DNA of 5,422 nt from a virus (taxonomy: Duplodnaviria > Heunggongvirae > Uroviricota > Caudoviricetes), in IMG/VR virus record IMGVR_UViG_2681813182_000003; one strand, written 5' to 3'. The translations under genes and the position numbers were made by a program. This document shows, piece by piece, positions 1,699-5,422 of this stretch. Position 1 is the first letter of the stretch. Every line of letters begins with the position of its first letter. The notes under the pieces are model-generated. The model searched no databases. It saw only the letters and a program-made list of their open reading frames with translations, and was not told the origin of the DNA.

Positions 1699-2193
1699 AT
1701 GGCTGGAACGGCGGGGCGTTCCGGGCGTCGCCCCAAGCCAACGGCGCGCAAGGCGCTGGCCGGAAACCCCGGCAAGCGAGCCCTGAACAAAGATGAACCT
1801 GTTTTTACGCCCATCAAAGGTGTTGAGCCACCAGAGTGGTTCGCTGAAGAAGATCTCCCTCTCGCCACGATCATGTGGCAACTGACAACCAAAGAACTCT
1901 GCGGTCAGGGCCTGCTGTGCGTGACTGACCTGGCGGTACTTGAGCGGTGGTGCGTGGCCTATGAGTTCTGGCGACGTGCCGTGAAAAATATTGCCATACA
2001 GGGCAACACCATCACCGGTGCAATGGGCGGCAGGGTCAAAAATCCGGAGCTGACCGCCAAAAAAGAACAGGAGTCCGAGATGAGCAGCACGGGGGCAATG
2101 CTCGGACTCGACCCCAGCAGCCGCCAGCGTCTGATTGGCCTGGCGGGGCAGAAGAAAGCCACTAACCCGTTTCTGAAAATTATCGAATCATGA
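1699..2193 (+). CDS. Terminase small subunit, P27 family
   Basis: The track ORF begins at GTG 1690, but AGGAG (1686-1690) overlaps that codon and is correctly spaced for ATG 1699. N-terminus [31 protein letters not shown] is typical of P27-family terS. Stop overlaps the terL start (ATGA). Confidence 0.85.
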
Positions 2194-3923
2194 GCCGGAA
2201 ATCTTACCCCAACGTAAATGCTGCAAATCAGTATGCCCGGGATGTCGTGCGCGGAAAGATTGTTGCCTGCCAGTTTGTGATTCAGGCCTGCCAGCGCCAT
2301 CTTGATGACCTGATGGCGGAAAAAAGTAAGTCGTTTCGTTACCGCTTCGACAAGGACCTGGCTGAACGGGCCGCGAAATTTATTCAGCTGTTGCCGCACA
2401 CCAAGGGGGAGTGGGCATTCAAACGGATGCCCATCACGCTGGAGCCGTGGCAGCTATTTGTGATCTGCTGTGCGTTTGGCTGGGTCAATAAAGGCACCCG
2501 GTTGCGCCGCTTCCGGGAGGTGTACACCGAAATCCCCCGTAAGAACGGCAAATCAGCAATCTCTGCCGGTGTTGCCCTGTATTGTTTTGCCTGTGATAAC
2601 GAGTTTGGCGCGGAAGTGTATTCCGGTGCCACGACAGAGAAACAGGCGTGGGAAGTCTTTCGCCCGGCGCGACTGATGTGTAAACGCACACCCATGCTGA
2701 CGGAAGCGTTCGGGATTGAGGTTAACGCCTCAAACATGAACCGTCCGGAGGATGGCGCGCGGTTTGAACCGCTGATCGGCAACCCAGGTGATGGTTCATC
2801 ACCCCACTGTGCCGTGGTTGATGAATATCACGAGCATGCCACCGATGCGCTTTATACCACAATGCTTACCGGGATGGGGGCGCGACGTCAGCCACTGATG
2901 TGGGCCATCACCACCGCCGGGTACAACATTGAGGGGCCGTGCTACGACAAGCGGCGGGAAGTCATCGAGATGCTCAACGGCTCGGTGCCTAACGATGAAC
3001 TGTTCGGGATCATCTATACCGTTGATGAAGGTGACGACTGGACCGGCCCGCAGGTGCTGGAAAAAGCCAATCCAAATATTGGCGTGTCGGTTTATCGCGA
3101 ATTTTTGTTAAGTCAGCAGCAGCGTGCGAAAAATAACGCCCGTCTGGCAAACGTCTTTAAAACAAAACACCTCAATATCTGGGTGTCGGCGCGTTCGGCG
3201 TATTTCAACTTGGTGAGCTGGCAGAGCTGCGAGGATAAATCACTGACCCTTGAGCAGTTCGAGGGGCAGCCGTGCATTCTGGCCTTTGACCTGGCGCGTA
3301 AGCTGGATATGAACAGCATGGCGCGACTTTATACCCGCGAGATTGACGGTAAAACGCATTACTACAGTGTGGCCCCGCGTTTCTGGGTACCGTATGACAC
3401 GGTGTACAGCGTCGAGAAAAATGAAGATCGACGGACAGCCGAACGCTTTCAGAAATGGGTGGAAATGGGCGTTCTGACCGTTACCGATGGTGCGGAGGTG
3501 GATTATCGCTACATCCTCGAGGAGGCCAAAGCGGCGAACAAAATCAGCCCGGTCAGTGAGTCACCCATCGACCCCTTCGGGGCGACCGGGTTGTCACATG
3601 ACCTTGCTGATGAAGACCTGAATCCCGTCACTATCGTCCAGAACTTCACCAATATGTCCGATCCGATGAAAGAGCTGGAAGCAGCGATTGAATCGGGACG
3701 TTTTCATCATGACGGCAATCCCATCATGACCTGGTGTATCGGCAACGTGGTCGGCAAAAACATGCCGGGTAACGATGATGTGGTGAAACCCGTCAAAGAG
3801 CAGGCGGAAAACAAAATCGATGGTGCAGTTGCGCTGATTATGGCGGTTGGCAGAGCCATGCTGTACGAGAAAGAAGACACGCTGTCTGACCACATTGAGT
3901 CCTACGGGATCCGCTCGCTTTAA
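2190..3923 (+). CDS. Terminase large subunit (ATPase/nuclease)
   Basis: 577 aa. Deviant Walker A-like P-loop ([12 protein letters not shown]), Walker B-like hydrophobic run ending in acidic residues (CAVVDEYHE), C-terminal nuclease-like region ([15 protein letters not shown]). Translationally coupled to terS. Confidence 0.93.
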
Positions 3924-3934
3924 CTGAGGTAATT

Positions 3935-4117
3935 ATGATCATGCTGATTCTCGCGCCTCTGGTGGGCGTGCTGGGTGCGCTTTTGCTGGCGTATGGTGCC
4001 TGGCTGATTTATCCCCCGGCGGGTTTTGTTGTTGCCGGGGCGCTGTGCCTGTTCTGGTCGTGGCTGGTGGCGCGATATCTCGACCGTACACGGCAGTCTG
4101 TCGGCGGAGGTAAATAG
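3935..4117 (+). CDS. Hypothetical small membrane protein (60 aa, two predicted TM helices)
   Basis: GAGG (3926-3929) lies 5 nt upstream of ATG 3935. Codon usage looks enteric (CTG, GCG, GTG rich). Two hydrophobic helices ([22 protein letters not shown] and [19 protein letters not shown]) and a basic C-terminus. The stop TAG overlaps the portal GTG (TAGTG), and the portal SD GGAGGT sits in its last codons. Confidence 0.55.
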
Positions 4118-5273
4118 TGTTCTTTTCGGGATTATTTCAACGAAAAAGCGATGTGCCGGTGACCACGCCAGCAGAACTGCTGATGCTATCGGGCTGTCAT
4201 ACGACACCTATACCGGAAAGCGGATCAGTAGCCAGCGGGCCATGCGCCTGACGGCGGTCTATTCTTGCGTCAGGGTGCTGGCAGAGTCTGTTGGTATGCT
4301 GCCCTGCAGTCTCTACAAAATCAGCGGTACCCTGAAAACACGGGCGGTGGATGAACGACTGCATAAGTTGGTTTCGGCAAAACCTAATGGCTACATGACA
4401 CCGCAGGAATTCTGGGAGCTGGTTATTGTCTGCCTGTGTCTACGGGGGAATTTTTACGCCTACAAGGTAAAGGCACTGGGAGAAGTGGTGGAGCTTCTTC
4501 CGATAGATCCGGGCTGTGTGGAACCGAAGCTGAACAGCCAGTGGCAGCCGGTTTATCAGGTGACGTTTCCGGATGGTTCCGTGGATGTGTTGACCCAGAA
4601 TGAAATCTGGCATGTGCGCACCCTGACGCTGGATGGACTTGTCGGGCTGAATCCCATTGCGTATGCGCGTGAGGCCATTTCACTGGCAGCGGCAACCGAG
4701 GAGCACGGTGCCAGGTTGTTTAGTAATGGTGCGGTGACATCCGGTGTGTTGCGTACGGAACAAAAGCTCACGCCGGATGCTTACGAGCGTCTGAAGAAAG
4801 ATTTTGAGGAGTGTCACACGGGGCTTGGCAATGCTCACCGCCCGATGATTCTGGAAATGGGGCTGGACTGGAAGTCGATGGCGCTGAACGCCGAGGACAG
4901 TCAGTTCCTGGAAACCCGCAAGTTTCAGCTGGAAGAAATCTGTCGTCTGTTCCGGGTGCCGTTGCACATGGTGCAGAACACCGATCGCGCCACCTTCAAC
5001 AATATCGAAGAGCTGGGGCTGGGATTTATCAACTATTCACTGGTGCCGTATCTGACCCGCATCGAACAGCGGATCAACACCGGACTGGTACGAAAAAGTA
5101 AGCAGGGCGTTTATTACGCCAAATTTAACGCCGGGGCGTTACTGCGCGGGGATATGAAGTCCCGTTTTGAAGCCTACGCCACCGGGATCAACTGGGGAAT
5201 TTACTCTTCCAATGACTGCCGCGACCTGGAAGATATGAATCCGCGTCCCGGTGGTGTAATGCCGATCAGTTAA
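4117..5273 (+). CDS. Phage portal protein, HK97 family, with a frame change near 4190-4212 (possible pseudogene or sequencing error)
   Basis: GGAGGT (4106-4111) lies 5 nt upstream of GTG 4117. That frame encodes MFFSGLFQRKSDVPVTTPAELLMLSGCHTTP and stops at 4249-4251. The long ORF ending at 5273 is in the -1 frame relative to it and has no ATG/GTG/TTG start downstream of the small ORF before 4242. Its body carries the conserved portal N-terminal motif (AMRLTAVYSCVRVLAESVGMLPCSLY). The track start at TTG 4026 would give an implausible Cys/Trp/Arg-rich N-terminus. Confidence 0.8.
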
Positions 5274-5305
5274 GGATCAGTTGACCGATCCAGTGGCTGT
5301 GTAAG

Positions 5306-5340
5306 AATCCGGAAACGCTCACTTGTTTCCGGATTTTTTT
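5306..5340 (+). terminator. Perfect 11-bp hairpin plus T7 tract (intrinsic-terminator-like) immediately upstream of the transposase ATG
   Basis: AATCCGGAAAC (5306-5316) pairs perfectly with GTTTCCGGATT (5325-5335), with an 8-nt loop. The T-run 5334-5340 abuts ATG 5341. Confidence 0.6.
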
Positions 5341-5422
5341 ATGCACATTGGACAGGCTCTTGATCTGGTATCCCGTTACGATTCTCTGCGTAACCCACTG
5401 ACTTCTCTGGGGGATTACCTCG
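5341..5422 (+). CDS. insG: IS4-family (DDE) transposase, N-terminal fragment (truncated by window end)
   Basis: ATG 5341 opens a reading frame that runs to the window end. The first 27 residues match my memory of IS4 InsG. There is no phage-module context and no conventional SD; the start is buried next to the hairpin. Confidence 0.55.
   Translation, partial: MHIGQALDLVSRYDSLRNPLTSLGDYL

Follow-up and report, generated by a model that had tools for sequence, protein, structure and literature searches.

The stretch of DNA analysed here, referred to throughout as the window, is the 5,422-nucleotide virus record IMGVR_UViG_2681813182_000003 of IMG/VR, assigned to the tailed phages (Caudoviricetes). 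Judged from its open reading frames (ORFs) and their Pfam and PHROG matches, it contains the late region of an enterobacterial HK97-like prophage, with HNH endonuclease, terS, terL and portal genes in the order typical of cos HK97-like phages. Between terL, the gene of the large terminase (2190-3923, with the TAA stop at 3921-3923; Pfam TerL_ATPase and TerL_nuclease, PHROG 9), and the portal gene lies a 60-codon ORF (3935-4117) with an ATG start and a TAG stop, which is the subject of this study and belongs, as described below, to the ymfR family; these and all other features are on the + strand unless stated otherwise. The gap between the terL stop and the ORF is only 11 nucleotides (nt). A Shine-Dalgarno (SD) sequence, GAGG, is present at 3926-3929, 5 nt before the ATG, and is kept as GAGG in diverged enterobacterial loci. 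At the other end of the ORF the SD sequence of the portal gene, GGAGG (4106-4110), lies within conserved C-terminal Gly-Gly codons; it spans codons 58-59, its first G being the last base of codon 57. The two genes meet in a TAGTG junction (4115-4119), in which the TAG of ymfR (4115-4117) and the GTG of the portal gene (4117-4119) share G4117, and in phiP27 and E. coli UTI89 the portal gene is annotated as beginning at the corresponding GTG. A preliminary description of this DNA, made from the sequence alone, had proposed the ORF with its good ribosome-binding site, the portal SD sequence in its last codons and the stop/start overlap, all of which were confirmed; translation within the late operon, which it had also proposed, is supported by the overlap of the end of the ORF with the portal SD sequence and start.

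The ORF is almost certainly a member of the YmfR / PHROG 502 family. It matches PHROG 502, 'membrane protein', with E = 2.8e-28 over residues 1-55, and this ORF carries the names Sb3 in ST64B and L37 in phiP27, whereas SfI and SfII list it as 'putative integral membrane protein'. RefSeq genomes of E. coli annotate it as 'ymfR: protein YmfR', the named locus being 92% identical, and in the e14 prophage of K-12 ymfR is found between terminase and portal pseudogenes in the order aaaE-ymfR-beeE. The proteins of e14, ST64B, phiP27 and SfII/SfI are 88-100% identical to that of the window over the shared 60 amino acids (aa), and their genes likewise lie between terL and portal with a 1-nt stop/start overlap. 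The window ORF itself is no different from these; what differs is that the portal gene downstream of it is a pseudogene. The segment from the end of terL through ymfR to the start of the portal gene (3700-4400) was matched in 1,604 of 5,426 complete E. coli genomes. Rather than the unusual insertion that had been suspected, the ORF is therefore a gene that is already known and named; a full-text literature search found no functional study of the family. A search among families of small phage membrane proteins succeeded in PHROG and failed in Pfam and NCBIfam, where no model covers YmfR and the window ORF and 40 distant members gave only sub-threshold matches to unrelated membrane families (TctB, DUF2244 and DUF1206).

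In four GenBank records (ON470584, ON470603, ON470580 and PQ793804) a YmfR homologue is labelled 'head-tail joining protein W'. We rejected this label as a positional mis-annotation after the lambda A-W-B order, given that there was no match to the gpW model of Pfam at E ≤ 1 and that residues 1-47 are hydrophobic. Lambda gpW does occupy the same slot, between A (terL) and B (portal), and is of similar size, but it is a soluble protein that acts after packaging, unlike YmfR, which has two transmembrane (TM) helices and is almost wholly hydrophobic.

The product of the ORF is, with near certainty, an inner-membrane helical hairpin of about 60 aa, predicted to have both ends in the cytoplasm and a tight aromatic/proline turn in the periplasm. 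Kyte-Doolittle hydropathy gives hydrophobic segments at residues 1-26 and 30-47, on either side of a YPPAG turn and followed by a basic tail, and an AlphaFold2 model built from a 21-sequence alignment has helices at residues 2-25 and 27-57 with a mean predicted local distance difference test score of 73.5. From hydropathy, the model and the alignment columns, TM1 is placed at residues 2-25 (3938-4009), with Gly11, Gly14 and Gly21 invariant, and TM2 at residues 31-47 (4025-4075), where LCL.WSWLV is conserved. The turn between them, Y26-P-P-A-G30 (4010-4024), predicted to be periplasmic, forms the centre of the aligned motif [SA]YGAW[LM][IV]Y.PAG[FY]I, and the predicted cytoplasmic tail, residues 48-60 (4076-4114), is basic, poorly conserved and ends in GGK. 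Across the family, lysines and arginines together number 0.98 per protein in the N-terminus and 1.63 in the C-terminal tail but 0.08 in the turn, as would be expected for an N-in/C-in protein whose turn is periplasmic. In 170 of 333 members the sequence of the turn is YPPA, and lysine and arginine are almost absent from it. The two hydrophobic helices seen in the preliminary description are thus borne out by hydropathy, by AlphaFold2 and by the positive-inside count. Length is also well kept, with 80 of the 120 listed relatives being exactly 60 aa long. Foldseek comparison of the AlphaFold2 model with the PDB and BFVD returned generic helical hairpins, every one with E > 1, and a sequence-profile search of the PDB gave no match at E ≤ 1. 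Some family members (P0154, P0170, P0182 and P0209) are tandem duplicates of 102-122 aa with two hairpin motifs and four TM helices, which hints that the working unit may be at least a dimer of hairpins.

As there are 64 ORFs of at least 30 aa in the window, the presence of a 60-aa frame would alone be weak evidence for a gene and a comparative test was needed. Close relatives of the locus have very high nucleotide identity, which would equally fit a chance frame or a conserved nucleotide element, and the comparison was therefore extended to diverged copies, found among 166 clusters from Enterobacterales, reaching down to about 58% identity, and 18 genome loci including those of Mangrovibacter, Klebsiella, Scandinavium, Citrobacter and Serratia. 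The median dN/dS (the ratio of non-synonymous to synonymous substitution rates) by the Nei-Gojobori method (NG86) was 0.27 over 79 pairs with dS > 0.3, with dS near saturation, and the corresponding ratio of proportions, pN/pS, was 0.31 for the TM1-turn-TM2 core and 0.70 for the tail. The annotated frame, and none of the other five, is free of stops in all 16 of the diverged copies. The ribosome-binding site is conserved, the family is large and constant in length, and the RNA of the region folds no better than shuffled sequences (z of -0.37 and +1.0), which gives no indication of an RNA element. By these comparative measures the ORF is a protein-coding gene under selection, with the protein and not only the DNA conserved, and the suggestion that it is no gene at all, already refuted by the same data, can hardly be credited. 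The finding that the preliminary description had named as a refutation, conservation of nucleotides without conservation of the ORF, is clearly contradicted. An antisense ORF of 95 aa that covers the hairpin gene (3920-4207, - strand) was likewise rejected as a gene, being open in close relatives only and containing 2-4 stops in diverged loci.

The reading frame is not intact everywhere. In a Shigella flexneri locus (L013, CP182557) ymfR is frameshifted, with residues 1-35 and 27-60 in two frames, and frameshifted variants are also present in the protein database (for example P0030, P0089 and P0095), indicating that the small gene decays in some prophages. Two loci attributed to unexpected hosts, one from a metagenome-assembled genome named 'Bacillota bacterium' (L004) and one from 'Martelella alba' (L018), carry terL-ymfR-portal modules of the enterobacterial type, that of L004 with 93% nucleotide identity to the window; contamination or mis-binning is the likely cause of these host labels.

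The family extends well beyond the enteric bacteria. A profile search of 1.84 billion representative sequences found 399 clusters (at 50% identity) with E ≤ 1e-3, nearly all of 45-90 aa, sharing the motif [SA]YGAW[LM][IV]Y.PAG[FY]I[VA]GG, which runs from the end of TM1 through the turn to the start of TM2. A second search with a profile of distant members gave at least 1,428 clusters at 90% identity, whose named sources include Marinobacter, Sphingomonadales, Nitrobacter, Aliamphritea, Marinobacter phage AS1 and uncultured Caudovirales; the enterobacterial and distant profiles match one another with 99.7% probability in profile-profile comparison. All the named hosts of the family are Proteobacteria. 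With the distant-member profile, positive ORFs score 14-24 bits, shuffled controls at most 10 and holins at most 0.4.

The preliminary description had stated that in HK97-like packaging modules the portal gene normally follows terL directly. This holds for HK97, PhiBP82.1, BiPBO1 and BUCT603B1 and fails for a large proteobacterial set. In a survey of the terL-portal gap an ORF with two TM helices was seen right before the portal gene in Vibrio phages K233 and PhiPS02, in Burkholderia phage phiE125 (gp3), in Pseudomonas phage SC_9_H1H8_2017, in Ralstonia phage YO194_1 and in SfV, and no such ORF was present in the gap in HK97, PhiBP82.1, BiPBO1, BUCT603B1, Moraxella phage Mcat20 or two Firmicutes phages. 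The hairpin gene is thus frequent, and not universal, in the HK97-type head modules of proteobacterial phages. Besides that of SfV, described below, two of the hairpins found in this way are unannotated: one of 59 aa in the Pseudomonas phage (L191, 623-802; 23.5 bits) and one of 54 aa in the Ralstonia phage (L192, 632-796; 19.4 bits), each with two TM helices and each right before the portal gene.

Where the gene is present its position is fixed. All 18 genome loci have it between terL and portal, and among 80 IMG/VR loci found with the distant profile, 73 of which have a recognisable small ORF, a portal gene of the HK97 family follows immediately in 71, the other two being contig ends. The junction is also maintained: in these 71 loci the stop and start overlap by 1 nt (TGATG or TAATG) in 56 and as ATGA in 7, the remaining 8 having gaps of 0-13 nt, and the TAGTG of the window is the same 1-nt design with a GTG start. 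In diverged loci the C-terminal GG(E/D/K) codons keep a GGAGG or GGGGG that serves as the portal SD sequence. With the stop overlapping the start and the SD sequence in the last glycine codons, ribosomes finishing the hairpin would re-initiate on the portal gene.

When modules recombine the hairpin gene travels with the portal gene. In the mosaic loci phi467, L009, L014, L017 and L019 terL is only about 36% identical to that of the window, against 76-88% for the portal protein and 52-88% for the hairpin. The reverse is seen in SfV, where terL is 98% identical to that of the window, the portal protein 28%, and the hairpin cannot be aligned with that of the window by BLAST. The SfV hairpin is an unannotated ORF of 53 aa with two TM helices, MKSLIADVIGLAGFGLLTCGVYLQFGMAPALILSGALLLVGALAMARRGTRAA, at 2289-2450 of NC_003444 (L194), and overlaps the terL stop by ATGA. 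From its annotated start at 2392 the SfV portal gene reads through this ORF in a different frame, and that start has probably been placed too far upstream; with a GTG near 2440 as the start, the protein would begin MLLDALFRSK, which resembles the MFFSGLFQRK of the window portal. By these comparisons the boundary between modules falls upstream of the hairpin gene, which stays with the portal gene and not with terL, and at the level of sequence the comparisons show that the hairpin gene belongs to the portal module.

The portal proteins themselves may be compared at their N-termini. Those encoded after a hairpin gene (L107-L186) open directly with a short hydrophobic motif (MFFxGLF, MxGLFG or MGFLS), and in four of five portals from phages that lack the hairpin gene (HK97, PhiBP82.1, Mcat20 and BUCT603B1) a longer hydrophilic N-terminal extension precedes a similar amphipathic stretch. 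The fifth, the portal of BiPBO1 (MDILNIF...), is without the extension.

Such regular coupling raises the question of whether the peptide matters at all. The ORF might serve mainly as a leader, bringing ribosomes to the start codon of the portal gene (GTG in the window) and so setting a low portal dosage, with the peptide a tolerated by-product. The stop/start overlap and the SD sequence in the last codons are indeed the most universal features of the gene, the C-terminal Gly-Gly is explained by the SD sequence, and the tail, with its pN/pS of 0.70, is near neutral. However, the TM core is under purifying selection (0.31), its motif persists in at least 1,400 clusters and at differing GC contents, the length and the two-TM topology being kept as well, and relatives that lack the hairpin couple the portal gene to terL, showing a leader ORF to be unnecessary for coupling. 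We consider a pure leader improbable.

In the window the partner of the hairpin gene has been inactivated. Alignment with ST64B and phiP27 shows that the 5' fragment of the portal gene (4117-4251) has 21 native codons and then a frameshift leading to a premature stop at 4249-4251, caused by a 1-bp deletion between 4178 and 4179 (GAACT-GCTGAT in place of GAGCTGGCGGAT in ST64B and phiP27). The body of the gene (4179-5256; Phage_portal, PF04860, E = 3e-107) continues in the frame of the ORF at 4026-5273, homology to other portals ending at 5254-5256, and is interrupted by an IS4 end (5257-5422) that runs off the window, begins TAATGCCGATCAG at the 5256/5257 junction and shares 97-98% identity with IS4 ends from unrelated surroundings in E. 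coli. Five IMG/VR contigs (L021-L025) have the 1-bp deletion too; all of them break off within IS4, and two differ from the window at 14-20 other positions, from which it follows that the deletion was inherited and did not arise as a read error. The portal gene of the window is a pseudogene and, with its partner inactivated, the window ORF is a relic in a defective prophage, like ymfR of e14.

The reading that we favour, and hold tentatively, is that YmfR may be a late inner-membrane factor in a portal or head step. The gene is transcribed within the late packaging and head operon; the hairpin would be made late and inserted co-translationally into the inner membrane, where it would take part in head morphogenesis, its most plausible task being to recruit newly made portal subunits, or the portal ring, to the membrane. 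The one documented precedent is T4, whose gp20 portal is assembled at the inner membrane with the help of phage gp40 and host YidC (PMC4493910), and the role envisaged for YmfR would be akin to theirs: gp40 is phage-coded, membrane-associated and tied to the portal step (PMC4493910). YmfR resembles a gp40-like protein in being, by prediction, a phage-coded membrane protein, and its tie to the portal consists of genetic linkage and translational coupling. The analogy is one of function, with no relation in sequence or fold claimed; in T4, genes 40 and 20 are not neighbours, and the portal and head of that phage belong to a different lineage.

Several observations weigh against a role in portal assembly. 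To our knowledge no membrane step has been described for HK97-type procapsids or heads, and HK97 itself and several of its relatives do without the hairpin gene. The best conserved part of the protein is the membrane-embedded half close to the periplasm, and the cytoplasmic tail, where contact with the portal might be made, is the least conserved. The named hosts are all Proteobacteria and the two sampled Firmicutes phages lack the hairpin, a pattern that could point instead to an envelope-specific role. Over 29 deep IMG/VR loci the rank correlation of hairpin identity with portal and with terL identity was uninformative (Spearman 0.05 and 0.12), most pairs being saturated, and linkage is judged here from the mosaic loci instead; no experimental, virion or interaction data linking YmfR to portal or head assembly were found. 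Set against the linkage and coupling described above, these points leave it possible, if somewhat doubtful, that in many proteobacterial HK97-type phages a hairpin co-translated with the portal links the synthesis or assembly of the portal to the inner membrane, as a widespread head-morphogenesis factor that has gone unrecognised.

Some of the same observations would suit a late membrane effector that has nothing to do with head assembly, one that oligomerises and tunes lysis timing in the manner of a holin or antiholin, blocks DNA entry or perturbs the membrane, the site before the portal gene being simply a convenient slot for expression. The conserved part of the protein is intramembrane and periplasmic, the named hosts are all Proteobacteria, and the glycine-rich helices suggest helix packing. 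In their small size and N-in/C-in topology with two TM helices, YmfR proteins are like the class II holins, among them the S21 pinholin, and one distant member weakly matches the holin family phrog_1299 (E = 0.0023). When the ASKA collection was screened for D-Ala leakage, a halo formed around the ymfR clone in the first round only; overexpression of membrane proteins or lysis is, according to the authors, part of the explanation for such halos (PMC10299036), so that this evidence is ambiguous.

The window, however, already holds a complete lysis cassette, consisting of an S21-type holin (11-226), identified from the ORF list and Pfam, a lysozyme (226-723) and Rz (708-1184) with Rz1 embedded in it at 940-1122; the cassette is followed by the HNH endonuclease gene (1227-1577), which lies next to terS (1690-2193). 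YmfR is unlike the holins in being encoded about 2.7 kb downstream of this cassette, in having no conserved dual-start motif and in its turn-centred YGAW..Y.PAG motif. The window ORF has no holin match in Pfam or PHROG, and the family profile gives the S21-type holin of the window -2.3 bits and lambda S 0.4 bits. Nor does a mere expression slot predict that the gene should co-segregate with the portal across exchanges of terL or be coupled to it by a nearly universal 1-nt overlap. An effector of this kind seems to us rather unlikely.

The preliminary description had also offered a moron-type peptide among the candidate roles, such as a toxin or a superinfection-exclusion factor. As a classical moron, ymfR would be independently acquired and would be expressed from the prophage to the benefit of the lysogen, as is HK97 gp15. 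PHROG places phrog_502 in the category 'moron, auxiliary metabolic gene and host takeover', and the ORF has stayed intact in two degraded prophages, e14 and that of the window; against the latter argument, 183 nt are a small mutational target and frameshifted copies do exist. HK97 gp15 shares with YmfR its small size, its inner-membrane location and the placing of its gene among the late genes of an HK97-like phage, but the gp15 gene is found in the tail region, is built as a moron and is expressed by the prophage. Unlike gp15, ymfR has neither a promoter nor a terminator of its own, shows no compositional shift and is coupled to the portal at a fixed position over deep divergence. No promoter-like site was found on the + strand between 3500 and 4500, and the sole terminator-like site on that strand in this range, at 4433-4446, is about 315 nt downstream of the ORF, inside the portal gene, and within chance frequency. 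The GC content at third codon positions is 0.672 for the ORF, 0.647 for terL and 0.644 for the portal gene; the host-like codon usage claimed for the ORF could be checked in this respect only, and here it matches its neighbours. Without a promoter or terminator nearby and without a shift in composition a moron is unlikely.

In SfII (L197, NC_021857) a 'putative rho-independent terminator' is annotated at 542-591, inside the 5' part of the hairpin ORF and corresponding approximately to 3943-3992 of the window. We rejected this element, since the equivalent RNA of the window folds no better than shuffled sequences (z = -0.37) and a consensus scan finds no terminator in or flanking the ORF.

Presence of the hairpin gene is not sporadic either, as it accompanies its type of portal in 18 of 18 genome loci and 71 of 73 distant ones, and its absence tracks different portal lineages such as that of HK97. 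None of the window ORF, the SfV hairpin and phiE125 gp3 matched any defence-system family of PADLOC at E ≤ 1. Replacement of ymfR in K-12 MG1655 is reported to be without phenotype (PMC9145139), and the e14 ymfR mRNA rises by about 4.5 log2 together with the other e14 genes, lytic genes included, under SOS-inducing treatment (PMC10012262). The moron, toxin and superinfection-exclusion roles are accordingly disfavoured; the anatomy of the gene already largely refutes a moron, which we regard as highly improbable.

A last alternative would make the hairpin part of the virion. With about 12 copies, 1:1 with the portal, it would be packaged and then inserted into the inner membrane of the next host as a conduit for the DNA. 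Coupling would favour 1:1 synthesis with the portal, and the tandem-duplicated versions with four TM helices suggest an oligomeric unit. A fully hydrophobic hairpin would nevertheless be hard to carry in a capsid, and the family is found in phage records that otherwise differ widely (phiE125, SfV and Vibrio K233). The tail of phiE125 is non-contractile and that of SfV contractile, and ejection machinery usually follows the tail module, which also counts against an ejection component, as does the failure to find any structural or proteomic report of one. Virion proteomics of Serratia phage BZS1 was considered as evidence and rejected, as that phage has a module of the lambda W type. A virion or ejection role therefore has, in our estimation, a very slight chance of being correct.

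The ORF of the window is in itself ordinary, a named gene in a decayed prophage, and it is the family that is of interest. No Pfam model describes it, yet in well over a thousand clusters it is fixed immediately upstream of the portal gene and coupled to it, in phages of enteric bacteria, Vibrio, Pseudomonas, Burkholderia, Ralstonia and alphaproteobacteria, where the hairpin is often unannotated or obscured by a wrong label, such as 'gpW', or by a wrong portal start, as in SfV. If YmfR does act on the portal, a membrane step would be added to the best-studied paradigm of capsid assembly, and prohead initiation nucleated at the membrane would be no peculiarity of T4. Should the portal role prove false, YmfR would still be a very common late membrane protein, with a possible role in lysis or exclusion.

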